Source: Psammoneis japonica (lineage: Eukaryota). Taken from it: DNA of 51,453 bases. The position numbers were made by a program, and so were the translations under genes. Positions 3,231 through 46,687 of the stretch are shown in pieces; positions within the stretch are counted from its first letter, which is position 1; every line of letters starts with the position of its first letter. The stretch covers positions 607,899 to 659,351 of the forward strand of contig QPGO01000035.1 of the NCBI GenBank assembly GCA_008632985.1, in the 5' to 3' direction. Under the pieces are notes generated by a model. The model was not told the origin of the DNA. It saw only the letters and a program-made list of their open reading frames with translations, and searched no databases.

Positions 3231-4007
3231 GATTTGGGTCATGACTCTATTTCCCCAAATGTGATTCATTTGGAACGCACCCAGGCTGGTGATCCTGTCC
3301 CAGCTGAATCCAAGGAAACTGCTGTGGAACAGTTCCAGTTTGCTGGCAACCCCTTTGCTGAGACTGTCACCCACACGATGAAAGGACTGTTCCATGACTC
3401 TGCCTTTGGCCTGTCCCTGCATGCCGATGACCCATGTCAACGTGTCCATGTTTTGGACATTCAATGTGGCACCCCTGCTGCTTGCTTGTTCTCCTCCTTG
3501 AAGGCAACTCGCAACAAGACATTGGGTGCCTGCATCATCTCCATCAATGACCACCATGTTTTCACCACTGACAATGCTGTCAACAGATTGCAAGCCCTGC
3601 ATTGCTCAGGCAAGGCACATTGTTTTGAGACCAAGTTTGCTCCTGAACATTGTCTTGACTCCAAGGCTTTACAACATGCATTGGTTGAGCACAGTGTCTT
3701 TGCTCCTGCACCGGACCCTGATGAGGAACATGCACTGGATTTGACTCCAGCTGACACTCATGCAATTGTGGCAATTTGCTGCCCTGGCACTGACTTCTCT
3801 GGTTTTGATGACATTGAGGAACCCCCAACGATCCATGTTGATCATGACAATGGTGTTGTGAACCTGCATGCTGTCTCCTCTCATGTGATTGCCCCAGAAG
3901 AACAGACGTTGGGTGCTTTCACATGACACAGCCTTGAGAAGTTGCCTGCTTGGCCAGATTGGCATGCTGGTGAATTCCAGCAATTGGATTGATTCCATGA
4001 GATTGAC

Positions 4008-5305
4008 ATGTTTGGTGCACCCATCAAGCAACCAAAGGATGCTGTGGCACTGCGTCCCCACTGGCAGTGCAACCTCAAGAATGATGGAACACATTGTTCC
4101 TGGCAATGCTTTGATGGATCTTCTCATGCGGCTCCCATTGTTCTTCACCGTCTTTGCTCCACTCATTCATTTTGTGTTGAACAACCTGTTCAATGGATGT
4201 TTTTTGCCCTTGCTGCCACTTTGAGTTGTCAGACATGCAGTGGCAATGCAAGAGACACATGTGTGTGCTCCCTGGCACCTTCTCATCCCACACACGTTGC
4301 AACTGATGAAGCACACGTGACTTGGTGCAAGTCTAGATTTGGAGTTAAGTTGGGTCAGAGCACGGTTCTTCCAATGCAACATGCCCTCCAAGGACACCCA
4401 GAAGCCGGTGTGCTTTGGGAGAATCACATCAACAGCATTCTCTTTGATGTGAATCTTTTGTTCCACAACACTGCTCATGACAAGTGTGTCCACTCTGCTG
4501 CATTTGATGGACACAAGATTTTGCTGTTGCAACAAGTCAATGATTTTTTGATTGCATGCCCTGATGAAGCTGTTGCTCTCAAGAATTGTGACAAGATTGG
4601 CAAAGCTCTGCAACTCCCTTTGGAAGCCAGTCCTCCCTTCAAGCATCTTGGTCTTGTTGAGGACTTCAATGGTGTGGATGTTCACCAGTGTGATGACTCT
4701 GTTGGCATTGCCGTCCATGCTCACTTGGTGCTTGTCTCCCATGGATGGATTAAACCTGCAGCAGCTGAACCTGCTGCTGACTACAAGGCAACTCCTGCAC
4801 CCGTCGAGTCCATCCATGAACTCTGCACCACTGTTGGTCCTGTTGAGGGTGCCTCAAAGCATGCTGAATTGGAGGAAGCAGCTGGTTTTGGTTGTTGCAC
4901 TCTGCTTGGAGAATTGTTGCATGCACATGTTGTTTGCCGTTTAGATGCAGGTTACGTCATCACTGCCTTGTCCAAATTTTCTACTTGCCCTGTCATGTTT
5001 CATTGCAATGCCCTCAAGGGTGTTGCCAAGCACCTGCAACACACCAAGCATTGAGAACTCAACTGCAAGAAGCCCAGGTTGGACCCTGGTTTACCAAAAT
5101 GTCCGCATGAAAGATTGGCCGATGACCCCACTTTACCACCTTTTCCTGCTGCTGATTGTGAGCATCAACTCCTTGCTTTTCTGGATGCTGCATGTGAAAA
5201 TGACCTCCACAACTGCCTGTCCACTGTGGGACATGGTTGCATGCTGGCAGGTGCTGCTGTGTCATTTTGATGCAAGACACAGTCGGCTGCGGCTGCAAGT
5301 TCCAC
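4008..5305 (+). pseudogene. Copia reverse transcriptase plus N-terminal part of RNase H
   Basis: LRPHWQCNLKNDGT, ALQGHPEAG, HDKCVH (from HDxCxY), LQQVNDF, DFNGVDVHQ, TLLGELLHAHVVCRLDAGY. The RNase H remnant ends abruptly at ...AAAASST (~5305). Confidence 0.9.
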
Positions 5306-15200: not shown

Positions 15201-15950
15201 AAGCCAGCTGGAAAAAAGACAGTTTTCCATGCCATGTCCATGAAAGAAATGAAGGATGGACAATGACCAAGATGAAGCTGGTCATGGAGGACCAAAAAGG
15301 ACCAAAATGACATGTCAGCAAACCTGATGGTCCATGAGTGGATGAGCAAGACCAAACCCTCACAAAATCTGATGGCAACATTGGCGTGCATCACAGATCA
15401 CAAACTCTCATCACTGGCAGAGGATGGCATTGTCACAGTGACCAAGGACATGGCAAAGGTGACGAGGCTGCTGGGAGGTGGCCTGTGTTGACTGACCTTT
15501 GCTGACCTGCACTCTGTGCTTGTTCATGCACATGATGAGTTTTTTGGCAATGTGCAAGGGAAAAAATCTGGCACTGAACTCTGGGCAGTGCAACAATCTT
15601 GCCAGGAATTGAGGCTGCTGTGACCCCACCTTGCAACAGCCGCAACTCTTCAGAGCAATCGACTCAGCAACACCACAAGACATGCAGCAGCAACCATGGG
15701 ATGCACAAAAGGATTAAAGTACAAGAGGAAGAGCAATCATTGAGTTTCCACCATGCCAGAAAAGGAAGCTGGGGCCGAGAAGCATTGAAAGAACAATGGG
15801 CGTGCAGAAGTGACAACGAAAGGACTGCAGAGGTTTCTGCGCTGCAAAATCCACCATCAAATGCAAGCAGCAGATGCTCTGACACATCACTGCAAATGGC
15901 AAGCATCAGCACAGAACAGAAAACAAAACAGCATGTTGTAGTAAAAGACA
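12240..15950 (-). mobile_element. Degenerate non-LTR retrotransposon (LINE; APE endonuclease plus partial RT), 3'-truncated
   Basis: Endonuclease: STCTRGSKQLDCVLATP (from TYxRGSxRIDY). Linker/RT: LHPRNQKHFGQAQGMPPTVP and GKIEPWKESTS...SGLHLGHW, then RT-start remnants down to ~12300. Assignment of 15000-15950 to this element is uncertain. Confidence 0.8.
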
Positions 15951-15990
15951 TCCCTGCCCATTAAGTGCAAAAGTTACAAGGTCCTCAAAC

Positions 15991-18900
15991 TCAGCGAAGA
16001 ATGTCCAAACCTCCCTCCTCGCGCGGAGATGTCCGAACAAATTCGATTTCTTTTTGCACCCATTCTAAAAGATCCCACTGTCTCTCTCCCATGTTCCATT
16101 TGAGTGACAAAAACAAAATGTCTTCAACATCATCTTCAACAAACCCTGCGAGAGATGGTTTCACCCTTTCTCCGTACAGGCGTTCAACTTGGGGAGCATT
16201 CACCTTGTCACGAGCAACTCTGGGAAATTCATCAACAAAGCATATTGCTGAGGTTAGCATCAGGGCAACCTCATGCGATTCCTTTGTGACATCTATGCCA
16301 AAGTTAGTCTGATGGACAGCAGTCAACGCAAAATCTTTCCAGTCAAAGCTGTGCTGTTCACCGCGACAAAAGAGCACTGCGGTCTGTCCTTCTTGTGTGT
16401 GGGATAGGTCCCGCACCACTACCAACTCCTTCACTTGTGGCAAAATTTCTCTCCATGTGCTTTCAATAACAGACGGGTCATACTCATCACCACCAAAATT
16501 GATTGATTTCCTGCTGCGTCCAGCTATGGTCAGCTTATTCTCGGTAAAAAGCCAACATCTCCAGTTTCATACCATCCCTCATCATCCAAAGGGGTATCGG
16601 TACCGCTGTTAAGATATTCGATCATCATTTGGCTTGATCGGAGAATAATGCTTCCTAGTGTGGCGTTCACTTCTTTTCGCGAATTCGTGCCGGGGTTTTC
16701 GTCGAGCGGCTCTACTCGTACTTCAACACCGTCACACAGAGTAAGAGCATCAGCCTCGGTAACATCGCGGCTTCCGATAAGGTGCGCTTCACTCGATCCA
16801 TAGGTTTCATATATCTTTACGTGTGTCCCGTCTTCGCGTGAAAAGGCAAGTATGGCTTCATCGATACATGCCGGTAGTAGCTTGGATCCAATAGTCAATA
16901 TTGTCCGCATTGACTGCAACGTTAGTGTCAGGTCTTCTGGATCCATATTGCTTACTGCGTCTACAACTTTGTCTAGTTGATGAGGAGACACAACTGCGGC
17001 TGTGGCATCATTTGCCAACAAATATTCAAGAAGCCCTTCTTTTTCGTCGTCTTCCTCCTCCTCCTCCTCATCTTCTTCTTCTTGGAACGACGAACGAAAA
17101 ATGGTATCAAAGATTGGCATCACGCACGCACCGAAAATCAAAGATGGAACATACACGTTGTCAAGACCCGCAGAGTCATCCATGCCGAGAGGACAGACTA
17201 TCTTTTCGCTAGGGTCGTGTGATAGTAACTTCTGGGAATTGGTAGCAGTGACAAATACAGCCTCATATGAGCTTGCAACAACCTTTGGCAACCCTGTCGA
17301 TCCAGACGTGAACGTCAGAATCGCTTCCTTGCTAAGAGGGAACGTCTTCGGTGTGTAAGGCAGTGCTGATAAATACGACTTCCAAGGAATGTCTTCTTCG
17401 ACCAGAATCATATTCGGTACACCTGGCACGAAGTCCAACGCCAAAACTACTCGAGTCGTGTTGTGACTATTCATGACAGATGAATAGCTCTCACTGGTCA
17501 AGCCATCGAGCACTATAACTGCGGGGTCAATAATCTCGACTACCTCGGGGAACCGGGGGTGCCACATCTGTCGTGCAACATTTGCATACGTGAAAGCATT
17601 CTTGAAACAGGCGAGCATGAGTACGTATACATCGTACTCGTATGTAGTTTCAGGGGTCACAGCGATCATCACTCTTCCATTTGACCTAGGTGGCATGTGA
17701 TGACGGATAATCGCAGCTGCACGGTCAGCGTCGGCGTGGAGCTGTGCGTGCGTTCGGACAGTATCTCTGTATTCCCCTGAGGACTTTCCAACAGATACCA
17801 TTGCGGGGGAAACTGCGAAGTTCTTGTCTGGTGGGCCGTCCAAAATTACAGACGCAGCGTGGATTAAGGCTTGATGTGAAGCTGAAGCGGCTTGATTCGG
17901 TGTAACATTCACTTTAGACGGTGTTCCCACGGATCCACCAATAATAACGTCTTGCTTCGTAATCAGGAACCGGACTACACGATTGCTCACTGAGACACCA
18001 CCGGGCTGGATCAAGACGTGCAAAAAACAGAGAAAAACAGGCAACCACATGATGCTGCGAGTCGAGAAGTTCTTAAATTCTCCCGTGTTGTTGGAGATCG
18101 CGGCTCTTTCGCTACCAATCTTTTTCGACTTTAACACATCCATGATACCTGGCTTGTTCTGGCAGTCGCTCCCATTTAAATCTTTTAGGGCTGTCCTTGC
18201 TACTTTCAAATTCACAGGCTCTGCCCCAATGCCAGCCATATGAAACCCAGGCCCCATTGCTATGATGATGACGCTGCGGCTTTCCTCAGTTAATTCGTTC
18301 CACGCTTCTGATGCCATTCGTAAGACTGTGCTTGACGCCAAGTTCCCGCCATCTCTGAGGCTAGAACGCATCCGAGCTATAGATTTTTGAGAAATATCAA
18401 CCGCGGTGTTCTTTTCCATAGCATCAACCATCTTGGATCCGCCTGGATGAATGACATGCGACACTGTGGTCATTGGTGCAGCCCCCATAGGAGACACAGA
18501 AGACCTCTCGCTTGTTTTGGCAGTAAGGTCCGCAGCAAATCCAGGCACGTGCTTCTCAACAACGTCACAGAGCTCTTTTGTAGTGACAAAGTGATATCCC
18601 ATTTGGTCGTAGTCAAAGTAGGAGACATGAGTCACGTGAGGGACACACTCTTGTTTTCCCGCAAGCACACGAAGCCCGCAAGCTCCTTCATTCCCATGGA
18701 CGGAGTGAATGCTATCTCTCACGGAATGTCCGCCCCGCATCACGCAAGCAGAGGCACAATCGCCGAATAGAGCAGAATTGAGGAACACACTCATACCTTG
18801 CTTGTGGGGCCGGAAACCAAGGGAGCAGAACTCCAAAGAGAGGATGAGTACGTTCTGAGTAGGGTTTCCCAGCAGCAAAGTTAATGCCATATCTAGGGCC

Positions 18901-20129
18901 ACCGCACTCGCAGCGCAACCCGCTTGTGTCACCATCGGCTTGCAGGTCTTCTTGAATGGCACAAGGTGCGTCAAGTAGTGATACAGATTTGGAAATGGAT
19001 ACGGCTGATGTGTTGACACAATCACGTAGTCAATATCTTCAGCCGTCAACGCGGCCTCTTCGAGAGCTTTGGCGATAAGCCCATCGTCACCACACAGCTC
19101 ACGCTGCGCAAGCTTGATGAATATATCGCGCTGCAACTGGGGAGTGATCTTCTGCGAAAGCTCTGGGAGGCCGTCAACAATAAGCTGATCACCTACTTTG
19201 AAAGGGGGGTTTTCCAAGGGGACAAGAAGAACGCCACTTTCAACAGAGGCGTGCTCGCCAGGCAGGACAAGCTCTTCGTTGTACTTTCCCGTAACTTTTT
19301 TCCAACTTTCATCGTGCGGAAGCACAGGAGGCTCAACTTTATTGTCGACCGATACGTTACCTACCGAAGGCTCGTTTTTTTCTGTACGGAACAAAAGTGG
19401 GTGCACTTGCGCATCCATTCCTACCTTGATGGCGTTTTCAACATGCGGTTTGTGCTGGTGTGTCGAAGAACTGCTTGGTGATTCCTTGGATCCTAGTTCT
19501 TTGATTTCCCGCGATGCGTCTAACGCGTCAAAGCTGTTTGATCTCCCCACCGGTTCGACGACTCCTTCATCACGGTCACCAGTTGTTGGTTGAACTACTG
19601 TGAATCCAACCCGACCAGTCAAGTTGATATCTTTTACGATGGCTTCCAACTTTCCCATCTCCCCCGAGTCTCCCAGCTCAAGTTCGACCAAGCTGATGCC
19701 GCCTGGTTCGCTAGTGAAGATGTTTGAACATTTCATGTAAAGCCCAAAGGCCGGACGCACAATGTGCCGCTTTTCAACTCCCATGGTATTGAAAATGATA
19801 TGAGACGCTTGCTTCAGTGCCCCCTCAGGGTCATTTTGATAGTTTCGGAGGATGTGTGGAAGCTTAGTTTGGATTGCCAGTGCAAAATCCTTGTTAGAAA
19901 CCACATGTTCCGGGAGCCAGACCGAGGGCTTGAACAAGACCGGGTCTTTCCAACAATCGTGTTCGTCAGACGCCTGCCTTGCGGCACTGTCTCTGTCGAA
20001 GTCTTCTGATTTAGAGCCGTGGTCGTGAGTCTCAGCCTCGGGTTTGAAGGTTTTTTCCTTGGTGGTTGACCGTCTGTTTTCCACTTGCGCTTCCGCCCCA
20101 AGGACGTCTTTCCCGAAAAGCTTCTTCAT
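15991..20129 (-). CDS. Type III polyketide synthase (RppA/THNS-like) fused to an AMP-binding acyl-CoA ligase domain; ~1379 aa if a 1-nt frameshift at 16546-16550 is corrected
   Basis: ATG at 20129 (MKKLFGK). PKS triad intact: Cys in TQAGCAAS (18915-18917), His in VIHPGG (18447-18449), Asn in GGNLASS (18342-18344). Also EFCSL, ALFGD and AMGPG. ANL motifs: TFTSGSTGLPK, YETYGSSEA, GWYETGDVG, then in the -1 frame IAGRSRKSINFGGDEYDPSVIE and FPRVARDKV. TpA, CpG and Tyr content are normal. Confidence 0.92.
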
Positions 20130-21044
20130 GGAAGGCGTGCGAGAGAATGGGAGAGTCCACGAGTTTGTGAAATGAGGTCGCGATAAAAGAAATCTCGATG
20201 GAACCTGCAGGGAGTAAATGGTGGTGCAGTTGCAGACAATGTGTGTGAGTGATCGACGCGCAAGTGGAACAAACCAAGGCTCTCCCTCGAGACACAAGAG
20301 AGAATATGTCTGATGTTTGCCTTGTTTGGTGACATACCAGTACTGGTTGCTTTGAGTGCACTGCTAAAACGAACGAATGAAATTTGGGAGAGGAAATAAT
20401 TTTCAACGCGTGAATCTCCGAGTGCTTCCCGCCAAAACGAAAACGCATCCAGCCATGTTGACGAGATGGCACAGCTTTCAGCTTTCATGCCATCCGGCCG
20501 TTATTAAATAAATAAATACTGTATCGAGAATAAAGGACCTCTATCTTTTAAGTGGAGAGGGCCCAACTGACTCTATAATACAGCACATACTGCATAAATG
20601 TACATTAGGTGCTGTGTTACTTACAGTAGGCCGCACTTGGGGAAACTTTCACACATACACTCTCTATGCAATTATATGTATTCGTGTTCGAATAAAATGA
20701 AAATTGGTGCGAAAATTTCACACATTTTTCGGCACGTGGCCTGATGATGCGTCAAAATTGGCTTTTGCTGACTCACAATAGAGTTGAAACACAATAATTT
20801 GATTGGCTGAAAATTTTTTTTGGAGGGACGCGGAGCGTCCCTGGAGGGACATTTGTCCCGCGGAGCGGGAGGGACGCGCGAAGCGCGCCCCCGAGGGACA
20901 GGGTGTCCCTCGGGTCCCTCGCAAATCGGCCGGAAATCGACGGGTTGAGCCGCCGACCAGACCGGTCACCCTACGACGGACGACAGACGGTCCGACCACC
21001 GCACTACCGCCGCTCGCTCGTTGCTGCTGTTGCACTACTATGGC

Positions 21045-33809: not shown

Positions 33810-34109
33810 CAACACCGGCTGTCCAGCAGTTCCTCCCAGCCAGACAGAAGAAGAAGAGAAAAGGAAAAGGAAGGAAAAAATGAACATTGATGAAGGTTTG
33901 AAAGGGTGCGCTGCAGCACCGCAGTGCGTGCAGCAGTGAAGACGGACGTAGACAGGTGCAGACGCGCTGCGTCCTGATGCGTCAGGCACGTGGAATTTGG
34001 TGCGAAGTGTCGTGCGTTTGCGTGCGCAGAAGGATGTGGATCGCCAACGGCTGGAATAAAGCAGCACACCGCACAGCAGTCAGTGCAGCTCTGTCATAAC
34101 GGCGCTAGA

Positions 34110-35582
34110 ATGGCGGAGGACAACATCGTTGCGTCTGGCAAAGCAGAGGATGTAGCAGCTCCGGAAGTCATGGCAGAACTCACGGGCGCCGAAGGCGTGG
34201 CGGCAGCTGCCATGACTGCACTTGGCGCCGAGGGAAGTGCCGAGGGTGTGTCCGTCGAGTCCGAACGCGCAAGGATGTTGGAGAAGCCGGCGCAGCCCCA
34301 AACTGAAAAGAGGGAGAAAGCCATGCCGCCAGAGCCAACCTTTCAAATTTGTGGTTGGAATGAAGCACAGCAGCTGGGTTGCACCGCCGAGCAGCTCCCC
34401 AAGGCCGGTTGCAAGATCGAGTTGGTGGGTGATCAGGCCACCTTTGTGAAACCGGAGGTCCTGCCTTTTTGCAGCGGCAAAAGCGAGGAGGCAGCCAAGC
34501 CCGCGGCCAAAGTGGTCGTGAAAGCAACGGCGGAAGAGGAAGAAGAAGGAAAGCAATTTCCGGACCCCAACGATCCGTCATTCGACTTGTGGGACTGGGT
34601 GTTGCGGCACAAAAAATCCGACAATTTCCAGGAGTCCATGTGCCTGATGAAGGATGCGCCGAATGATCCCGACCTCTGGTTCCCCGCGCTGGGAGAACTG
34701 GGGTGCATCAGGAGCGACCCTGAAGCCGTCGCGAATGCTCACGGCGAACACTGCAAGTGGGTGTGGAGGGGCCGCACGGAAGTCGGCGAGAGGGGCATCC
34801 CAGACTCGACGCCGAAGAGCAACAAAGTGTTCAAGACCGCCGTCGAGGCTTTCGAAGCGGGGTGGTCGCTCGCACTGGTCTACCTCGTGAAGAGAGTAAG
34901 TGCAGAAGTGTGCACATTTGGATGAGGCGCCATGTCACTTCAACCTGCATTGTTTTGCCTCAAAAAGTCCGTTCGCTGTGCAGGCCCCAAGGAGGTGGAG
35001 GTGGGCGAGCCACGTGTGTCGCAACGGAGGGGCGCAGGCATTGGTTTTTTTGCTTTGCGCCAGTTCCAGAAAGGCAGCACGGTTGGAATCTACGTGGGCC
35101 CCAGGGTGCCCGGTACGACGAGGAGCCATTCGTGGCATGACCACGACAGCAAGTTTGGAGAAGACCACAGCGTGTGCTGCTCCACCATCCGTGACAGCGA
35201 GGGCCACTGCGTCACAGTGGAGCCAAAACCGCTTGATTTTAGCGGTCCAGGGAACAAGAATTCCCATCCACTCTACCTCGGAATGCACTGCGTGAACGAT
35301 GCCACCGAGTCGTTCAAGGACAAGAAGAAGATCAAGGCAAGCCAACACGCAGACAACAACTGCGAGTTCTGCAACGACGGGTGCTTGGTGGTCACGAAGC
35401 GAATCATGCCCGGGGAGGAATTTCTCTCCAGACACAACTTGGACGAATCGGAGAAGAAGAAGAAGAAGAGGAAGGCGACGTCGGGTGCCATGAATCGGAA
35501 GAAGAAATCGTGTCTACTCCCCAAGTTGGGGGGGAGAAGCTCTGCGTCTGGCAAAACGTTTGCCGTGCAGTGTGCTCTGTAA
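34110..35582 (+). CDS. SET-domain protein (two exons 34110-34895 and 34968-35582), TpA-mutated and probably inactivated
   Basis: Removing a 72-nt GTAAGT...AAAG intron (34896-34967) joins YLVKR|SVR in frame. SET motifs: GAGIGFFALRQFQKGSTVGIYVG, YLGMHCVND, NCEF.NDG.LVVTKRIMPGEEFLSRHN, where the terminal Tyr position is now His. A basic NLS-like tail follows. Confidence 0.8.
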
Positions 35583-35680
35583 ATTAGTGGCACAGTGTGT
35601 TGGTGTTTTTCAGCGAAACTGTGGCATTAGTTGGAAAGGCGCAGCCCCAGTTGTGGTTCGAAAAATGGGAACGAGGAAGA

Positions 35681-35808
35681 ACAGAAAGTCAGCAAATTTG
35701 CGCAAATCTGGCAAATTGGCAGGCACCTGCACAGTCGCCTGAGTACAGAAAGTCAGCAAATTTACGCAAATTTAGCAAGTTATTTTTGCACTGTCACAGT
35801 CGCCTGAG
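35681..35808. repeat. Two tandem ~64-bp copies between the convergent SET and TET/JBP-like genes
   Basis: ACAGAAAGTCAGCAAATTT(G/A)CGCAAAT...CACAGTCGCCTGAG at 35681 and 35745. Confidence 0.9.
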
Positions 35809-37227
35809 AATGGTCTCTTCCTCTAGAGAAAGGGGGATTGAATTGTTGTTCTTGCCCACCACAGCACTCTTCAGGTGGAGAGACACGCAGAAGAACTCGT
35901 CGTTTGAGTTTGTCCTGCTGGAGATGCAGTGGCACTTGGTGGGGTTAAAAATGATGACATCACCAAGCCGGAGTGCAACGGAGATGCCTTCGGCAGGGAA
36001 GCAGAAGTGTGCCACAATCCCGTCATTCATGGTGTGGCTGCCGGACGGAGAGACTCCCACCACGGTGACCACTGACAGGAAGAAGTCCTGGTCCCTGTGG
36101 GCGTTGAGGAAGACATTGCGCCCAGCCGCCAGAGAGGAGAAAATGCCATCTGACTGCACCAGGGATTTCCAGTTGTGAAACTTTTTGACACGAGCGATGC
36201 CCTTGAGGATGGCACAGTCCACGTGCTCATTGACAAGGTGCTCCATGCGTGAAAGAAGTCTGGCGAGGTGGTGAGTGTGTTGGTCGGCCATGCCAGGCTG
36301 CTTGCAAGAAATTCGAGCGTCTCTCGTGGCAGCCAGGCCAATCATGGAACACTTGCTCCTGTCCGTCTCCATGAAGGTAACGCGTTGTTTGCTGCGCACG
36401 GTGGACTGGGTGGTGCAGCATTCTAGTGCTTCGAGCGCTCGGCACTGAGCAACTAGTTCTGCTGGGTTGGGGGAGCTGAACACCACAGCAGAACGCGGCA
36501 GCAGGGTGCAGGTGTTGTCGCAGCGGCAACCGTCCAAGCCAAAGAAAGGCTTCAGATCGAGCACAGGGTCACAGACGACCAGAGGAGCCAATTCGGCAAA
36601 GTCAATGTCAGCAAGACAAGGTGGTGCAGGCTGAGTGTAGTCGCCGTTGTAAACTAGAGTGCGGTCAGCTACACAGTGCATGGAGAGACTCTCAGTGGCG
36701 CACGGTGCAAGTGGAACGAGGTGAGCAATCTTGGATGTTTTCCCACTGGCGCGGCTGCGGATTCGCCTGCGGCTGCGGTGGGCCTTGCGAAGTGGCGGTT
36801 GAGCCCTCAACACGTTCTCGTGCATCCTGGTGTGCATTGACGATGCGGTGTTCGCAGAGAACGTGTGTGCGAACTTGCTGGCAAATGTTCCGCTGCTTGA
36901 CACTGTCACTGTCGTCTCAACAGTGCCCAAAGCAGAACTCTGTCGACAGGGACCGGCGGACTCCAGGGGAGTGGGGTCAAAACCCAATCGAGAGATGTGT
37001 CTGCTTTCCATTGCCTCAAGAGCACCCAAAGCAAAACTCTGTTGACAGGGACCAGCGGACTCCAGGGGAGTGGGGTCGAAACCCAATCGCGAGAAGTGTT
37101 TGCTTGTTGTCGGGCTGCGAGCTGCACGTCCCAAACCCCCACACTGTCGAGACCGGCTGCAACTCAATCGCGACAAGTGCTTGTCGTTGGTGGGACGACG
37201 CAGCGAGGCACGAGGTGGTTGCGACAT
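35794..37227 (-). CDS. 2-oxoglutarate/Fe(II) dioxygenase, TET/JBP-like; TpA-mutated
   Basis: C-terminal DSBH pattern: IFSSLAAGRNVFLNAHRDQDF (HxD at 36091-36099), HFCFPAEGISVALRLGDVIIFNPTKCHCISSR (distal His at 35929-35931), CVSLHLKS. The start codon is uncertain. Confidence 0.75.
   Translation of the reverse strand: MSQPPRASLRRPTNDKHLSRLSCSRSRQCGGLGRAARSPTTSKHFSRLGFDPTPLESAGPCQQSFALGALEAMESRHISRLGFDPTPLESAGPCRQSSALGTVETTVTVSSSGTFASKFAHTFSANTASSMHTRMHENVLRAQPPLRKAHRSRRRIRSRASGKTSKIAHLVPLAPCATESLSMHCVADRTLVYNGDYTQPAPPCLADIDFAELAPLVVCDPVLDLKPFFGLDGCRCDNTCTLLPRSAVVFSSPNPAELVAQCRALEALECCTTQSTVRSKQRVTFMETDRSKCSMIGLAATRDARISCKQPGMADQHTHHLARLLSRMEHLVNEHVDCAILKGIARVKKFHNWKSLVQSDGIFSSLAAGRNVFLNAHRDQDFFLSVVTVVGVSPSGSHTMNDGIVAHFCFPAEGISVALRLGDVIIFNPTKCHCISSRTNSNDEFFCVSLHLKSAVVGKNNNSIPLSLEEETILRRL
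36926..37183. repeat. 99-bp (33-aa) tandem duplication plus a partial third copy in the dioxygenase N-terminus
   Basis: SRLGFDPTPLESAGPC(Q/R)QS occurs twice (units at 36926 and 37025); KHLSRL is a partial copy. Confidence 0.9.
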
Positions 37228-37674
37228 GGTGTGTCTCAATTTGAAATGTGTTTCAAAACATGATGACGGAAGTGTTGTCGCATTGTTTTTGTCTCCGCGG
37301 AGGGAGGATCATCCCACGGCAATCTCAGCGCGAGTTCTCGCGTAGAAGTGCGTCACGTGCCGTGCCAGCTCGTGCATTTGAATTACACGGACACACAAGT
37401 GCGGCAACGATGAGAAGCAGGCCGAGATTCAAAACAAATTTTGTCGCCCAAAGGCGTCTTGTCATTTCAACGTGTCTGCGTGTCTGTTTAAAATGACTTC
37501 ACGCGTTGCTCCATGCGCAGGTAGAGGTGGCACGCCGCATTTGAAAATTTCGCGCGCACAGAGGGCGCGACGGCAATTTTACGCATTCTGCACACGTCAC
37601 AGTTTGGCTTGGAAACGCGACATCTGGTCGAACCCGCTGCAAGCAAGGTTGATGTTGCCACAAGGTTGGGTGCG

Positions 37675-38544
37675 ATGAACCATCGTCACAGAAGTGTTGG
37701 GGAGTTTTGTCTTCAAACGGCTCCAGACTCCGCGTTCCAGAGCAGGCATGTCTCCGGAGACGGAAGCGGATCTTCACACGGCGGTGAAGTTGGCTTCGCT
37801 TTGAGCAGCGAAGTGTTTTTGAACGAATGCCTTCTTGGCGTGAATCACACCTGCGACACATCTGTCGACATGGGCGGGGGAGTTGCCGGACCCAGCATCG
37901 GGCTCAAGTTACTTCGTCGCCGTTGCACCATGGTGAGCATCAAGGCCGACCACGATCGTCACCAAGAGGCTGTACGTTGGGCTCATTGTGCTGGCCTTTG
38001 CTCGAACGGCGGGTTAGAGTTGATCAACAAGTCATTCTTGGACGAGAGGCTGGCTCCTTTGTGGAAAAAGAAAGGACTCAAGGTGTTCTTCAACAACTGC
38101 AACTCCCGCATGGTCGACGACAAGAACACACAGCAGAAGGCAGAGGCGATGCTTTCGAAGTTGTGTCGTGCTGGGACCGTGGTGGTGGCGCTAGATCCGC
38201 TGTTCACGTCGCACGCGGGAGAGTGGATGTGCGAGTCCTTCACGGCGGATTGCCATGATGGCGACTTTTTGTGGCACAGCGGAGACGTGAAACATCTCGT
38301 CTTCCACAAGTGCACCAAGAAAGAGGAGACTTCTCAGTCAACCAGCCAGCACATGCGACGTCCCACTCCGACACACTTGGAACGGAAGTGTTTGCCCGTC
38401 GCGAAACAGCCAATTTTACTTAAGAACTCAACTGAACTGTTTTTTTACTGTCGCTGCACTGGACGTCACACGCTAGTTACTCTACTCAATTCGCCATTGC
38501 TTCACGGTGACGACAAGTTGTCGTCGGAGATGGTGCACACTTGA
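37675..38544 (+). CDS. Class I SAM-dependent methyltransferase, DOT1 (H3K79 MTase)-like; TpA-mutated
   Basis: Ordered motifs match DOT1's YGE / VDLGSGVG / GxE / GDFL / FVNNF / GxxIVSxxP: SHGGEV, SVDMGGGVAG, VSIKAD, KSFLD, VFFNNCN, AGTVVVALDPLF. The C-terminus may be read-through after stop-codon loss. Confidence 0.65.
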   Translation: MNHRHRSVGEFCLQTAPDSAFQSRHVSGDGSGSSHGGEVGFALSSEVFLNECLLGVNHTCDTSVDMGGGVAGPSIGLKLLRRRCTMVSIKADHDRHQEAVRWAHCAGLCSNGGLELINKSFLDERLAPLWKKKGLKVFFNNCNSRMVDDKNTQQKAEAMLSKLCRAGTVVVALDPLFTSHAGEWMCESFTADCHDGDFLWHSGDVKHLVFHKCTKKEETSQSTSQHMRRPTPTHLERKCLPVAKQPILLKNSTELFFYCRCTGRHTLVTLLNSPLLHGDDKLSSEMVHT

Positions 38545-39503: not shown

Positions 39504-40046
39504 CAAATCAGTTGGAGAGAAATTGTGGGAACAAAAAGTGCGATCGTTCAGAAGTGCCAAGAAAGACCCAGCAGAGCTGCGTGCATCATGCCAAGGAGAA
39601 CTGGCAACATCAGCAACTAGATCCAAACACGTCGAACTGCAACAAGGCAACCTTCCAGGTGTCAGCACTTGCAAGTGGTGCATGGATTCAATTTGAACAA
39701 AACAGGTGCAAGGATCGGAGCACGCAAAGTCACACTGAGTTCACTGAAAATGCGTAAAATCACATGCAATTCCGTCCATGCTTCGTGTGTGTTTCAGCCG
39801 TCACTGCCGCGCGGCCATCGCGCATGAAATCTAGTCGCCAAACGGTCGACGCCATCGCTGTCACCACTGCACCGGCAGTTAGCTAAGGTGGGCCCATCAC
39901 CCATTTGGAGGATTCGCGCGCACTTTGGAAACACGAATGACGTCAATCGTGTTGCCATTGCCACATGACCAACTCAACTGCCCCGCCACTTGTTAAAGCG
40001 TGATTCTGCGGAATTTACGTAAAGCTGCGCCCACCACCAAGATTGC

Positions 40047-40150
40047 CGAAACAACTTGAACAAGATCCGAATCTTGCCCCATGGAATGTTCAGAGCAGAT
40101 GGTCGAAACAACTTGAACAAGATCCAAATCTCATCCCATGGGATGTTCAA
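40047..40150. repeat. 57-bp tandem duplication
   Basis: CGAAACAACTTGAACAAGATCC.AATCT...CCCATGG.ATGTTCA at 40047 and 40104 (KQLEQDPNLxPWxVQ twice). Confidence 0.9.
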
Positions 40151-40304
40151 CGTCGACGAAACTAAGCAGGACATCGCACGTCTGGCACGAAGAAGGACGT
40201 GGGAGGAACGCACACGTCACTCTTCCGTCGAGGTGAAAGAGGCACACTTTCGTCTCACTTTTTTGTGACAGAACCTTTGTGCAAAGGGAAACGAAAAGCA
40301 TCCA

Positions 40305-40631
40305 NNNNNNNNNNNNNNNNNNNNNNNNNNNNNNNNNNNNNNNNNNNNNNNNNNNNNNNNNNNNNNNNNNNNNNNNNNNNNNNNNNNNNNNNNNNNNNNN
40401 NNNNNNNNNNNNNNNNNNNNNNNNNNNNNNNNNNNNNNNNNNNNNNNNNNNNNNNNNNNNNNNNNNNNNNNNNNNNNNNNNNNNNNNNNNNNNNNNNNNN
40501 NNNNNNNNNNNNNNNNNNNNNNNNNNNNNNNNNNNNNNNNNNNNNNNNNNNNNNNNNNNNNNNNNNNNNNNNNNNNNNNNNNNNNNNNNNNNNNNNNNNN
40601 NNNNNNNNNNNNNNNNNNNNNNNNNNNNNNN
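40305..40631. other. Assembly gap
   Basis: Run of N. Confidence 1.
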
Positions 40632-40960
40632 GCAGCTCTCACAGAGACCTGATCGCACAGGTTGTGAGAACACGACACAATGCTGCGGTGATCGGGTGGC
40701 ACCGACGCAGTTCGTCAAGCAACTGATTGACTCGGCTGCGGTGACTGGACAGCGCCAGTCGCAGTGCTCACAGCGACCTGATTGCACAGGCTGTGAGAAG
40801 ACGACACAGTGCTGCGGTGAACGGATGGCACCGATGCGGTTCGTTGATCAACTGGACAGAACCACTGCGGTGACTGGACGACACCAGTCGCAGTGCTGCA
40901 GGTGGTGAGAAAACACACATCACTGTGGTGATTGGATGGCACCGATCGCAGCTTCATGGT
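40632..40960. repeat. 129-bp tandem repeat array (two full copies plus a partial one) abutting the gap
   Basis: CTCACAG.GACCTGAT.GCACAGG.TGTGAGAA.ACGACACA.TGCTGCGGTGA at 40638 and 40767; partial copy ~40905-40955. Confidence 0.9.
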
Positions 40961-41039
40961 GATCGCACTGAAAAAACAACCATTTTTGCTGAGTGGCTTC
41001 TTGAAATTTGTTGAGTTAAAGTGTCAGCTTAAATTAAAA

Positions 41040-44000
41040 ATGGACGAGGCCAACTCCCGTGTTTGCAACGCAATCAACAGAAAGTTTGAGATGCTTTGTC
41101 TACATGGAGATGGAGAATTTAGACCACACGCATGTTTGGTCTGTGATGTTCTGCTGAAACCTAGAGAAGTTTGCTGCTTGCCGCTCAAAACATTGGAATC
41201 AGCAAGAAACTTGCTCACCCCTTCAGACTGGAACAGCGCATCTGATCGTCTCAAGTCCTGCTGCACTGTAGAGCATGAAGATGCTGATTGGATCAAAGAC
41301 CTGCCACTTTCTCCCCACGCCCAATGCGCAGTGCAGGAAGACAGACGATGCGTCGACGGATTCACTTGCTGCAGCGAATGTCAAAGAAGCCTGGGAAGAG
41401 CCGTCATGCCAATGTGCGCAACAGCGAACAACTGCTGTTTCGGTGCCCCGCCGCATGAACTGTTGTCTCTAACCGAAGCCAGAATTGGCAATGCTCACAC
41501 CAGTGAAAACATGCGGACACTGCTTCAGCCACCTTGGCGGCAAACAGAAGAAGCTTCAGGGAAGTCTGACGTGCTACAAAGTCAAGATACAAAGCATCGT
41601 AAGAACTGTTGTGCACTTCGACGCACTGAATTTACATCAGAATGTGATTGCACTGATGACTGGAAAGATGACTCCGGAGCAAAGACAACTTGCGTGTTCA
41701 AAGAACAGAATTAGGACGCACTGCATGCCAAGGGCGATGGAATGGCTGTTGCACCACAACCAAGAGTGGGTGCACCAACAGACAAATCTAGACGAAGTCA
41801 GGCGTAATCTGCGGAATCCCGCACTTGTCGACAGCACCAGCAAAGAAGAAGGAGAAAATGCGAGTGTTGAGACCTCAGAGTCATTTCACATTTGCTTTCC
41901 TGATGGAACCATGTCTCCTGCGACCGGTGGTCAGCGCAACCTGGACTGCTTCAAAGATCTTGCACGAAGCTGCTGCCAACGGATTTGATTTAGAGGTGCA
42001 AGCACAGTTGTCTAAAGAATCTGCGAGTGATTTCAAAGGCAACAACTTCATTGACGCGTGTCTGCTGCAGTTTCCTTTTGGCAGAGGAGGAATCAATGAG
42101 ACGAGAATGAAGAAAGACGGAAGTCTTGCAGACAGCACCAACCTTGCACACTGTGCCGACCACCACGGATTTCCCAGCCTCACTTCCACGAGCAGCTCTT
42201 CGTGTTAACATGCTGCAACTTGACAATGAAGCAAAGGATGCTGCAGAGCGCAGGGTGGAAAGTCAGGGACAAGAATCAGGCTGCACAGTTTGCAAACGAA
42301 CTGACAGTGGACGATGTGGACAGAGCTGTTTGTGATCGCAACTTGGGCGAGAGAAGAGATTGTGGACTCGGGCACCACTTTTTGCGTGCACTCGACGTTG
42401 CATCTGCGTCTCTGCCACACAGNNNNNNNNNNNNNNNNNNNNNNNNNNNNNNNNNNNNNNNNNNNNNNNNNNNNNNNNNNNNNNNNNNNNNNNNNNNNNN
42501 NNNNNNNNNNNNNNNNNNNNNNNNNNNNNNNNNNNNNNNNNNNNNNNNNNNNNNNNNNNNNNNNNNNNNNNNNNNNNNNNNNNNNNNNNNNNNNNNNNNN
42601 NNNNNNNNNNNNNNNNNNNNNNNNNNNNNNNNNNNNNNNNNNNNNNNNNNNNNNNNNNNNNNNNNNNNNNNNNNNNNNNNNNNNNNNNNNNNNNNNNNNN
42701 NNNNNNNNNNNNNNNNNNNNNNNNNNNNNNNNNNNNNNNNNNNNNNNNNNNNNNNNNNNNNNNNNNNNNNNNNNNNNNNNNNNNNNNNNNNNNNNNNNNN
42801 NNNNNNNNNNNNNNNNNNNNNNNNNNNNNNNNNNNNNNNNNNNNNNNNNNNNNNNNNNNNNNNNNNNNNNNNNNNNNNNNNNNNNNNNNNNNNNNNNCTC
42901 ACAACAGTTCAGAAGATCTGCAGCACGGAATTAATCTGCAGCGAGGACTTCAGCACTAACGCGTTGCGTGAAGCATTCGATCATGACTGCACAGTGCCAA
43001 AAATGTGTCGCACCTCTCCAAAAGCAGCAGACGACCAACAGCTAAGAAACCTGAGGCACAAAGACGGCCAGCAGTCGAAGAACGGAATGTTTGCTTGTTG
43101 TCGTCACTGCACCAAGTGCTGGACAAACGTCGAGTTTGTAGAAAGCTTTTTACAGTCACGGCACCGTGCACCTGGCCTGACTCGCCATCCAGACAACCAT
43201 GCAAAGCGACCAAAAGCAATGTGTGCACAACACCAGCGAAGTGGTCCGCAAGGGACAACAGAGGCATGTGTGCCGGACGCAGCTTACAACCATCACATGC
43301 ACGTTACGAAGTCGTGTTTTCCCAAATGCGCAGAGTTGCGTAAAATGCGCAAAAAAACCCCACACGAGGAACTGGACGTGCTGTCAAGGAAACGGAAACG
43401 AGAGGAGCTCAAACTGGGTGACTGCCATCACAGGCAACCAGCTGCTTCGTGTCCAAATAATTTGGCAAGGAACGCAGATGACACTCAGATAAAGTGGTTC
43501 AGCTGGGATGGAACTTTTGCGTATCGGCACGTGAAGGAAGTTGTTCCGAAGAGGAGAAAGTGTGATGCTTTTCAAAACGTGTCGTGCCCTGCAATGAGCA
43601 GATCAAAACTGACATGCAACACAAACATTGCTTTGTTGATGCCTGGACCGTCTGCTCAATGCACGATTGAGCACATCCTAAAAGACACCCAGAAAGATGA
43701 CACTGCATCGTACGATGAAGTGCTTCGAACTACAAACAGGACAGCGACGGAATTGCGGAAACACGCATCTGATGCATCGGAAGCAATCAGATGTCTCACA
43801 TGGGGTGCTCACTCGCACAACAAGACGAACATCATTGGACCACCACTTGCGTCTTACACAACAAGGAATGGAAGCCATTTCATCGAATCTCATTTGACCG
43901 CATGGTGCCCCTTGAAAGACATTGTCAGCACACTAGAAAGAGACGAAGTGTCTGCGACTGTAGCCCATTTTGGCGACACACCGTTCTTCCAATGCCAGGC

Positions 44001-46687
44001 CTTGCACCACCTGTGTCGTCCAACAGCACTGGAGAATCTCAGTCCATTTGCGTTTTTCAGTGAATGCGAAGTTCTTCGCAACACAAGGAAAAACGAACAC
44101 GGCATGATGATGTTCGACAACAGAGCGCACAGGCACCCGTCTTGCAATTCAACGAAGAATGAGTTTCTTCAAGGTGTCAGACAGCGACAGCAACCGCGAT
44201 TGTCAAAAGCACTTCAGTGTGATTTTCCTGATGCAGCCAAGTTTGGCAGTTGCCTTGTGGATCCGCAGCAACCAACAACACTGGACAAAGAATTGTGCTG
44301 CAAGTTGGCATTGGCCTTGTTTGCGCCTTGCAGAACAATGACGGAACTCAAACCAATGACCCACACATGCCTGCGTGAATTCCAACTCTCCGCAGCAGCC
44401 GGTGTCATTGCAGAGGAAAACTTGAACTTCTTGCAGAACCTGCAGGATGCCAAGTCCAACTGCCTTCGTCTCAAAAGTGCATCTGACGATCTGCAAAGAA
44501 AGACGGAGCAATTTAGACCTGCTGACGTTGCGTTTGACTGTTGCGAAAGTGACGAGGAAGAAGGTCTTTCAGGCGCCGTTCAGGGTCAACTGCTGGATGC
44601 ACTCTTGGAAGAAATGGCAGAGCAGCCAGAAGACGATGACATTGGGTTGAGCGACCAAGCAGTTGTTCCTGCGCATTTGAGCGGCAAACGTGCAAGACAG
44701 AAAGGTTCACACATGGGTGGTTGCAAATGCTTGGCAGACATGCACACTGACCCACCAAACGAGGAAAGCCAGGTCAATGAACGACAACTTTTTGAGAATC
44801 TAGAGGGCGGCGATGACACCGACGAGGAAGACCAGAATGAAGGAGTGCAACAACACATCCACAGCAGACCACTGTCAAGAGACGACATTGTTCGAGTGAC
44901 ACTGACTAGAACGCAAAGAACAAGAAGGTCGTTTGAGGACATGACAGGTTTGGAAGAACACGTCGATGTACGTCAAGCAAACGGATCTGCAGCAAGTGTC
45001 GTAGACTGGGCTAGGAAAGCAAGACTGGACAGGCAACAGCAGCGTGCCTTTGAAATTCTAGCAGGAACCTTTGTGCTCACTTGCTGCCAAGACGCTCTTC
45101 AAGACGAGACGTCACGCAATGGACTCAACAGGAGAAATGGCAGACACGAATTCGCAACAAACCTTCGCCGATTGAAGAAACTCGTGGAAGTGCAAAGACG
45201 CAGAACGTTGCAACTTGTGTGTTTTTTACATGGTGCAGGTGGAAGTGGCAAATCAACCACAATGGACCTCGTCGTGGAATGCGGAAGAGAGCATTGCTCG
45301 CTTGTTGAGCAGCCGTTCACAACAAGCACAATCAGAGTGACTGCACTGACCGGAGTGGCTGCGACTGTTCTCAAAGGGGACACAATCCACCGAGTTGCAT
45401 GCCTCATGAGAAGAAAGCAAACAACCGAAGAGCAAATTGAAGCATGGTCAGACACGAGACTTTTGGTGGCAGACGAGATTTCTTTTGCAAGCAAGAGAGA
45501 ACTAGAAAAACTCCATGAGAATTTGACAGTGTTGAAGAGCGAATTGAGCAAGCCGTGCGGTGGCATGAACATTGTTTTCGCAGGTGACCTCAGGCAACTA
45601 GAACCAGTCGGAAAAGGAGTGAAACCACTGTGCAAAGATGCGTGTCCCGAGTTTCACGAGTGGATCAACTGCCACATGGAACTTCGTGGTGTGCACAGGT
45701 TTAAAGACGATCCATCATGGGGAAAACTGCTCAAGAGATTCCGCACTGGTGAGATTGCAGTTGACGATGTGGAGCACATCAACGAACGAGCAGTTCAGAA
45801 TGAAGATGATCTGCCCAGTGACCTCCGCTGTGCTGCGCACGCAAATAAGGACAGAGATGCAATTGACACTGGCCCATTCGAAAAAAGAGCAAAAACACTG
45901 CATAGAAGAGATGGAGACGTCCTTGACTCAATGTTGATTTTCAGTGACGACTTGCAGGTGCAGAATGGCACGAGACTCTGCCAACCATTTCCGGTTTGCA
46001 ACAGCTTCTGGAACAACTGTGGTGAAGGAGACGTTGTCATGCAATCAGGAAGAATGGATCCAGTCTTACGAATTTACAGAAGATGCAGAGTCATGACACC
46101 TTTCAACGAAAATGCAGCAAACGGTCAAGCAAACGGAACGCAAGCCACTGTTGACAAGGTCGTTCTCAAACCAGGACAGGAACCAAGACTGGTGACTTTA
46201 GACAACAACATTGGCATTCCTGCTGCTTGCCAGTCAGGTAGACCACGTTGCATTGGAACACTGCAACAAAAGCATCGACCCCGCGAAGTTTTTAGTTGAG
46301 CCAAAAACAAATGCTTTCAGGGCTTGCATCGCCAAGCCCAGCCCAATTTTAGAAGAAGGCGACAAACAAAGGCACACTTTCCAACTGAAGGCAACCCAGC
46401 TGCCGTTTGTCATCAACAATGCCACTGCAGGGCACAAACTGCAAGGGAGTGGAGTCCCGCAGTTGTTTGTACACTCTTGGAGCTACACTCAGAATTGGGT
46501 GCATGTTGTGCTCTCCAGAGTAAAGACCAGAGAAGGGCTGTTCATGCGAAAGCCACTGAGCAAGGACCTGCGAAAATGCAAGGTCCCAGAAGGCTACGAA
46601 GCCTTGATGAGACTCATGAAGGAGAGAAGCGCCACGCATTTTTCTCAGCAACAGCACGCAGAAACAATGTGTGCGCAAACAGATTAG
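41040..46687 (+). mobile_element. Helitron Rep/PIF1-helicase polyprotein, frameshifted and hypermutated
   Basis: N-terminal CxxC motifs and MPMCATANN..GAPPHELLSLTEA; LLQFPFGRGG; Rep-region HHMHVTKSCF, CNTNI, QCTIEHILK. PIF1 motifs: GAGGSGKST, ALTGVAATVLKGDTIH, ADEISF, GGMNIVFAGDLRQLEPV, HRFKDD, ANGT, TAGHKLQG, VVLSRV. Frameshifts near 41480, 41960, 42170 and 46230. Confidence 0.92.
42423..42897. other. Assembly gap (probably hides the Rep HUH motif)
   Basis: Run of N inside the Rep region. Confidence 1.

Follow-up and report, generated by a model that had tools for sequence, protein, structure and literature searches.

Can a polyketide synthase (PKS) of type III and an enzyme that activates a carboxylic acid occur naturally in one polypeptide? 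The question is raised by a locus in a 51,453-nt stretch of Psammoneis japonica contig QPGO01000035.1 (hereafter the window, i.e., the whole stretch analysed), in which positions 15991..20129 of the minus strand hold a type III PKS followed by an adenylating enzyme of the ANL superfamily. Type III PKSs are textbook stand-alone enzymes, and fusions of ligases with them have been engineered to raise flux; to our knowledge, Steely of Dictyostelium is the only well-known natural fusion of a type III PKS. A natural PKS–ANL fusion would mean that evolution has reached the engineers' solution, would allow heterologous hosts to make a polyketide from a free acid with one compact gene, and would provide a pathway for a very divergent ANL lineage that cannot otherwise be assigned. 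The locus also brings into view a group of protist type III PKSs that may be membrane-anchored and for which the literature searched yielded no product assignment. The sequence evidence makes it highly probable that the gene at this locus is continuous and intact and that each of its halves could be catalytically active. Taken as a whole, it is best explained as a single nuclear gene of a eukaryotic microalga that encodes a two-enzyme protein of 1379 residues, which would be membrane-tethered and prime itself, an explanation to which we give somewhat better than even chances.

As assembled, the gene is split over two frames of 1199 and 185 codons. The first starts with an ATG at 20129 and remains open to a stop at 16530; the second, from 16548 to a stop at 15993-15991, encodes the final portion of the ANL half. 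The apparent frameshift lies at a T5 homopolymer (16546..16550, minus strand) that is one base short, as the contigs of two DNA runs in Logan, X1 (depth 60) and X2 (depth 78), carry one extra base each in this run, i.e., T6. Once the missing T is restored, the open reading frame (ORF) measures 4137 nt, or 1379 codons, plus the stop, and an intron is not required; the six-T reading gives Gly-Phe-Phe-Thr-Glu-Asn-Lys at the join. An ANL relative, P0002 (handles in P and L denote relatives found in the searches described below), aligns with its residues 32-480 to the first frame and with its residues 479-640 to the second, at 39-40% identity and gapless at the break. The two alignments overlap, and therefore no sequence is missing at the join. 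The first-pass annotation of this DNA had described a single reading frame without an intron, which holds for the restored sequence given by the X1 and X2 contigs but not for the window as assembled, where two frames are present. Its boundaries, 15991-20129, agree exactly with the ATG and the stop, and the peptide strings that it quoted are all found in the minus-strand translation.

The junction between the PKS and ANL halves is crossed in a single piece by an X1 contig and by an X2 contig, and one junction-spanning contig is 8,038 nt long. The comparison with Logan contigs covered 15900-20400 and three DNA runs from one sample, which is possibly the window's own source, and X1 and X2 therefore represent an independent assembly, not an independent organism. 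Because Logan contigs drop minority variants, a frameshifted second allele could go unseen. The X3 contigs contained none of the 15900-20400 stretch. X1 and X2 also differ from the window at 19495 (Leu212Arg, within an insertion discussed below) and at 19515 (silent), and X2 alone differs at 16989 (silent); these differences reflect polishing errors or else another haplotype. As for the frameshift, it stems from the assembly or is, at the least, not the majority form.

The N-terminal half is, judging from its sequence and predicted fold, a bacterial-type type III PKS that is catalytically plausible. It begins with a hydrophilic extension (residues 1-59; 19953..20129), which matches no family and shows coding-type codon statistics. 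Next comes the opening part of the type III PKS fold (residues 60-127; 19749..19952), which aligns with residues 12-64 of THNS and residues 8-71 of the relative P0003. The core (residues 321-640; 18210..19169) is supported by Pfam, by alignment, by an AlphaFold2 model and by Foldseek. Pfam recognises Chal_sti_synt_N over residues 317-464 (37.3 bits, cut-off 27) and Chal_sti_synt_C over residues 492-633 (32.7 bits, cut-off 27), and the only Pfam families that match the first-frame piece are those of the chalcone synthase (CHS) type, the FabH type and AMP-binding. The catalytic residues Cys405 (18915-18917), His561 (18447-18449) and Asn596 (18342-18344) line up with the THNS motifs in the PDB sequence search; in a 25-row alignment the Cys and His are invariant and the Asn is kept in at least 90% of rows. 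The Phe of the LFGD motif is encoded at 18765-18767. The claim that one gene holds a complete Cys-His-Asn type III PKS and then an ANL domain is thus borne out by the Pfam domains and the triad.

The top match of this half in the PDB is THNS of S. coelicolor (1u0m; 2.3e-21, 78.5 bits), followed by PKS11 of M. tuberculosis, with plant CHS-type enzymes scoring lower. The alignment with THNS falls into two parts, one pairing residues 65-127 with THNS 12-64 and the other pairing residues 350-629 with THNS 90-345. An AlphaFold2 model built from the 25-row alignment has a predicted local distance difference test score (pLDDT) above 90 over most core blocks, and the leading Foldseek matches of the model are PKS11 (1.2e-22), THNS (template modelling score 0.87, normalised to the target), CylI and ArsC. 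Together, the model and Foldseek predict a thiolase-type alpha-beta-alpha-beta-alpha fold for the core. The enzyme had first been likened to RppA of Streptomyces. The likeness stands in so far as the window PKS is nearer to bacterial THNS/RppA than to plant CHS by sequence and fold (1u0m at 2.3e-21; 0.87), but membership of the RppA group does not: identity is about 30%, the best NCBIfam model is DpgA at 60.6 bits against a cut-off of 425, and in the tree described below the protein groups with protist rows rather than bacterial-type ones. An RppA-specific model is absent among the best 25 of 37 NCBIfam matches. Nor is the PKS a stand-alone subunit of about 40 kDa, being part of a 1379-residue chain and carrying an insertion of 194 residues.

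This insertion (582 nt; 19170..19751) lies in frame in the N-domain of the PKS and, on alignment, codon statistics and the AlphaFold2 model, is specific to this lineage; a counterpart is missing in all 24 aligned relatives. Codon statistics were scored with a model trained on the conserved domains only, as log-likelihood per codon in frame versus out of frame. The insertion scores −4.025 in frame versus −4.40 and −4.27 out of frame, and its GC content at the three codon positions (0.61/0.37/0.49) follows the pattern of the conserved coding domains. Within the insertion, the other two forward frames are interrupted by 9 and 14 stops, and within the linker that joins the two halves by 10 and 3, and therefore the open frame is not due to chance. 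The AlphaFold2 model places a short hairpin-plus-helix in the insertion at a pLDDT of 60-69, while some 130 residues fall below 50. We read the insertion as a coding, largely disordered, lineage-specific loop. An alternative in which it is an intron was considered, as in-frame GT...AG pairs exist at 19760..19161 and 19756..19163, and was rejected with high confidence: both pairs have weak 5′ sites, and splicing at either would take out an Arg-Pro that is conserved just behind the first PKS segment; the full coding statistics of the 582-nt stretch also oppose it. Both this insertion and the hydrophobic linker described below had been overlooked in the first-pass annotation.

The C-terminal half appears, from its motifs and its few relatives, to be a member of a rare, very divergent lineage of the ANL superfamily. 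Its large AMP-binding domain (residues 749-1193; 16551..17885) is delimited by Pfam, by motifs and by P0002, with the Pfam AMP-binding match covering residues 788-1173 at 68.8 bits (cut-off 29.9) and profile positions 18-384 of 384. It carries the P-loop FTSGSTGLPK (residues 940-949; 17283-17312), YGSSE within YGSSEAH (residues 1110-1116; 16782-16802), TGD within YETGDVG (residues 1187-1193; 16551-16571) and a poly-Glu/Asp stretch (17043-17081) that is not in P0002. The small C-terminal domain and tail (185 codons; 15994..16548) contain GRSRKSINF and the Lys of FPRVARDKV. We take T-S-G-S-T-G-x-P-K in the P-loop, Y-G-x-x-E, T-G-D, the hinge G-R and the C-terminal Lys to be the core motifs of ANL enzymes. 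All five are intact here, which makes adenylation plausible. The 187-residue C-terminal piece has no Pfam match and is 40% identical to residues 479-640 of P0002, whose residues 442-540 align with a solved adenylation domain across the hinge. Full-length P0002 matches an adenylation domain in the PDB at 1.9e-8, then McyG, oxalate-CoA ligases and 4CL. An AlphaFold2 model of the linker and the ANL half, built from a 6-row alignment, had a mean pLDDT of 43 and no usable fold. By Pfam, the fusion protein contains no carrier domain.

No second example of the fusion was found, in agreement with the initial suggestion that it is rare; this holds for the cluster representatives, the word searches, the JGI scans and the literature. 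When 1.84 billion cluster representatives were searched exhaustively by phmmer with the 1199-residue piece, 951 matched at E<=0.001, and none of the best 150 spans both halves: 145 match only the PKS and five (P0002, P0009, P0016, P0065 and P0106) only the ANL half. The longest of these 150, P0002 (660 residues), contains AMP-binding only, and AMP-binding is absent from the longest PKS-only matches, P0018 (618 residues), P0140 (529), P0020 (519) and P0096 (477). A word search among proteins of similar length with residues 60-1199 gave no matches but is uninformative, since even P0002, whose length falls within the range, escaped it; the corresponding search with residues 740-1000 found P0002 alone. 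The window's own protein lies outside the searched libraries, which perhaps cover annotated eukaryote genomes thinly. A scan of JGI metagenomes with the ANL alignment gave 287 pattern matches and no relatives, and the scan for the PKS gave four loci of 1.2-1.6 kb (L001-L004), of which two (L001 and L002) are stand-alone PKS ORFs, complete and flanked by stops, and L003 is a fragment. A natural type III PKS–ANL fusion was not found in the literature searched (main texts). On this sequence evidence the fusion of the two domains is real and so far unparalleled, both enzyme families being known.

In the fourth of these metagenome loci (L004:338-1570), on a transcript-like contig, a PKS of the protist clade runs without a stop into an extension with a weak match to ankyrin repeats (Ank_3) (20.4 bits, below the cut-off) and is still open at the end of the contig. 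The protist PKS clade may therefore form further fusions.

The relatives of the PKS were collected by a word-based search limited to shorter proteins, which found 44. The top 29 share 36-43% identity with it, are 148-478 residues long and come from contigs of 0.9-6.3 kb; one has an MMETSP name, and one a EukProt transcript name marked complete. Beyond them, identity is at most 29% and the contigs are long and of bacterial type, with some proteins named alkylresorcinol or alkylpyrone synthase and one from Deinococcus. A quick maximum-likelihood tree of 78 rows comprised the window PKS, 20 protist-type rows and 57 others, which were taken from phmmer (kept at 320-480 residues) and from the word search. 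The label protist-type rests on similarity, two rows carrying eukaryote source names, so that the taxonomy of the clade is inferred. In this tree the window PKS falls in one clade with all 20 protist-type rows (Shimodaira–Hasegawa-like approximate likelihood ratio test, 100; stem length 1.17), where it branches deep, with a terminal branch of 0.99. Three motifs of the clade, scanned against one genome each of 185,579 prokaryote species, gave one weak match (27% over 100 residues). This, together with the fully supported protist-type clade, does not support a recent bacterial donor.

An old bacterial origin of the whole PKS clade is possible on the sequences compared. The bacterial origin that had been suspected at first may thus hold as an old event, but a recent transfer is not supported by the protist-type clade and the prokaryote scan. 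For other stramenopile type III PKSs, an old bacterial origin is proposed in PMC7284882 and PMC8133574, and PMC7284882 and PMC8329260 record type III PKS homologues from several diatom transcriptomes and one diatom genome. The relative P0162 retrieved only large bacterial (Actinomycetota) type III PKS clusters in the ESM Atlas, which is a lead rather than a test.

The two halves are joined by a hydrophilic linker (residues 641-692; 18054..18209), in frame, stop-free and with coding-type codon statistics, and a hydrophobic stretch (residues 693-707; 18009..18053) with a Kyte-Doolittle mean of 2.46 over its 15 residues. The linker has a codon log-likelihood of −4.115 in frame versus −4.30 and −4.36 out of frame. 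The hydrophobic stretch begins with Ile-Met and is the sole strong hydrophobic peak outside the folded domains. In all five ANL relatives, an initial Met and a signal-peptide-like segment align on residues 693-707, and four of the five N-termini exceed the hydropathy threshold. Terminal hydrophobic segments also occur in 7 of 20 PKS relatives of the protist clade, four of them C-terminal and tail-anchor-like (P0003, P0167, P0169, P0171) and three N-terminal (P0152, P0159, P0161), and L001 and L002 likewise have hydrophobic tails. Type III PKSs are usually soluble; members of this protist clade may, from their sequences, be membrane-bound.

The gene would accordingly be pictured as born by the fusion of two genes that are still separate in all detectable relatives. 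Both ancestral proteins probably bore terminal hydrophobic segments, and in the simplest history a gene for a membrane-anchored PKS would have been read through into a downstream, signal-bearing ANL gene, leaving a protein that would be tethered to a membrane. The ANL half would activate a carboxylic acid, probably fatty or otherwise lipophilic, with ATP and hand it over as a thioester, most simply, given the missing carrier domain, as the ester of coenzyme A (CoA). With this thioester as starter, the PKS half would add malonyl-CoA units and cyclise the chain to a lipid of the alkyl-pyrone or alkyl-resorcinol type. We put forward this self-priming coupling of the two halves tentatively, at a little less than even chances. 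Somewhat more doubtful still is the claim that the protein is either the first natural activate-and-condense membrane enzyme or, no less novel, a polyprotein in which one segment serves as tail anchor for the PKS and signal peptide for the ANL enzyme, so that two steps of a single pathway would be located on either face of a membrane.

A lipophilic acid as substrate and a pyrone or resorcinol lipid, not a naphthol, as product are suggested by three features: membrane anchors recur in the PKS clade, the fold is close to those of PKS11, CylI and ArsC, and a carrier domain is missing. PKS11, CylI and ArsC are long-chain alkylpyrone and alkylresorcinol synthases, and their folds, together with the hydrophobic segments, lend weak support to a lipophilic substrate. 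THNS-type enzymes start from malonyl-CoA, so that a ligase is unnecessary, and the making of a naphthol, which had been listed among the possible products, would hardly call for an acid-activating partner.

The protein can be compared with several known systems. Bacterial THNS (1u0m), PKS11 (4jao, 4jap), cyanobacterial CylI and Azotobacter ArsC share with it the thiolase-type fold and the Cys-His-Asn triad and are its best matches in sequence and fold, yet at only about 17-30% identity; they are stand-alone enzymes of about 350 residues, whereas the window protein adds the insertion, the N-terminal extension and the ANL half. Closer in sequence is the protist clade (P0003, P0152-P0171, L001, L002), at 36-43% identity to the window PKS and with common motifs SLGFRPHK-GMS and HPGG-(A/S)-(R/K)-M, but its members are 380-480 residues long and end at their own stop codons, with the insertion in 0 of 24 and no ANL domain. 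Steely of Dictyostelium is likewise a natural fusion of a supplier of starter acyl groups with a type III PKS. In Steely, however, a fatty-acid synthase that bears an acyl carrier protein (ACP) supplies a type III domain located at the C-terminus, whereas in the window protein the PKS is N-terminal and the partner adenylates. Pfam finds none of the upstream type I fatty-acid synthase/PKS domains of the Steely type (ketosynthase, acyltransferase, ACP) in the window protein. Steely is called unique in PMC9489281.

The engineered 4CL::STS protein (3tsy) is also a single chain made of a type III PKS and an ANL ligase, and it matched both the PKS half and P0002 in the PDB sequence searches; it is, however, man-made, has the ligase first, and consists of plant enzymes with known phenylpropanoid substrates. 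A similar logic governs pathways whose type III PKS is primed by a fatty acyl-AMP or acyl-CoA ligase (FAAL/FACL), such as that of cylindrocyclophane, in which, according to PMC11837247, the ANL enzyme CylA activates a fatty acid and the type III PKS CylI cyclises, the two being separate enzymes with an ACP and type I modules between them. The window ANL is not close to the fatty acyl-AMP ligases, the best such match of P0002 being 3pbk at only 2e-5.

Several observations weigh against the self-priming explanation. The order of the domains, PKS and then ANL, is the reverse of that in 3tsy and would fit equally well if the ANL half took the finished polyketide as its substrate. Searched by itself, the large domain of the ANL half has no PDB sequence match at E<=0.001, and its best NCBIfam models (adenylation domain, MenE and fatty-acid ligase models) all score far under their cut-offs; therefore, its substrate class is not inferable from homology. 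Relatives of the ANL half are far rarer than those of the PKS (5 versus 145 among the best 150 of 951 matches), and therefore the two families are not obligate partners. The stretch around the gene is poor in recognisable genes and contains transposon remnants, and the window assembly carries a frameshift, which could be a real null allele. Finally, the N-termini of the ANL relatives resemble cleavable signal peptides, and an internal copy of such a peptide would block direct hand-over. If the retained segment engages the translocon, it would place the halves on opposite sides of a membrane or cut them apart, either of which argues against simple channeling of the starter.

This last point leads to the rival that survives best, which we nevertheless regard as unlikely. 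Here the protein would resemble a polyprotein or be divided by a membrane: the hydrophobic stretch would work inside the chain as a signal-anchor or as a signal peptide that is cut, the PKS would be held by a tail anchor on the cytosolic face and the ANL half would lie in the lumen of the secretory pathway, so that the ancestral placements are reproduced and the fusion provides only co-expression and co-location, not starter hand-over. The placement of a Met and a signal-peptide-like segment on this stretch in 5 of 5 ANL relatives (4 of 5 above the hydropathy threshold), the tail-anchor-like ends of P0003, P0167, P0169, P0171, L001 and L002, and the lack of any strong hydrophobic peak other than 693-707 outside the folded domains are all consistent with it. 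However, some 15 hydrophobic residues that include Pro and His are short for a membrane span, and an ATP- and thiol-dependent ANL enzyme would find itself in the secretory lumen without obvious co-substrates.

Two further alternatives are each quite improbable. In one, the locus yields two products through an internal promoter or alternative splicing, with a separate ANL mRNA starting from Met694 and perhaps a PKS mRNA. Met694 indeed opens the hydrophobic stretch exactly as in the stand-alone relatives, and a linker of about 65 codons would be stop-free by chance in about 4% of cases (as we estimate by taking about 0.047 stops per codon). Yet the linker has in-frame coding statistics and its sequence is confirmed by the read-derived contigs, and with no in-frame stop after the PKS, a PKS-only mRNA would be without a stop codon. 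In the other, the fusion is young, unexpressed or decaying, and the frameshift is a real null allele in a transposon-rich stretch. The frameshift in the assembly would fit, as would the neighbours (a copia-type reverse transcriptase fragment and a PIF1-like helicase ORF, with 23 of 25 long ORFs lacking Pfam matches) and the 2-3 further bases at which the read contigs differ, perhaps marking a second haplotype. Against decay, more than 4.1 kb are open once one base is restored, the contigs of both read sets are intact at full depth, the catalytic residues and motifs are intact, and the codon statistics are coding-like throughout. An assembly chimera or a bacterial contaminant, for which only the homopolymer error speaks as a sign of imperfect assembly, is very improbable, given the junction in one piece in two independent read re-assemblies (one contig of 8,038 nt), the eukaryote-type closest relatives of both halves (MMETSP and EukProt transcripts; signal peptides), a prokaryote scan with nothing close, and neighbours that are eukaryotic transposon remnants. 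The single-gene, two-enzyme explanation is preferred.

The surroundings of the gene, poor in genes and containing transposon remnants, are consistent with a eukaryotic genome. Of the 25 ORFs of at least 200 codons in the window, 23 have no Pfam match. On the plus strand, a copia-type RVT_2 match at 3993-5051 (21.2 bits, below the cut-off of 31.6) is probably a decayed retrotransposon. A 1399-codon ORF, also on the plus strand (42100-46296), has a Pfam match to PIF1-like helicase/AAA_30 at residues 1038-1228 and possibly belongs to a mobile element, of the Helitron type or another; over its initial ~850 nt all six frames are open, suggesting low-complexity sequence. Repeats flanking the gene that could explain the fusion were not found, and the Rfam and tRNA scans of the window gave no matches. 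The base composition shifts sharply, with a GC content of 0.56 at 34-38 kb (34000-38000), 0.38-0.42 at 40-44 kb (40000-44000) and about 0.48 elsewhere, and sequence repeated in tandem, with period lengths of 57 and 129 nt, is present at 40040-40149 and 40638-40897.

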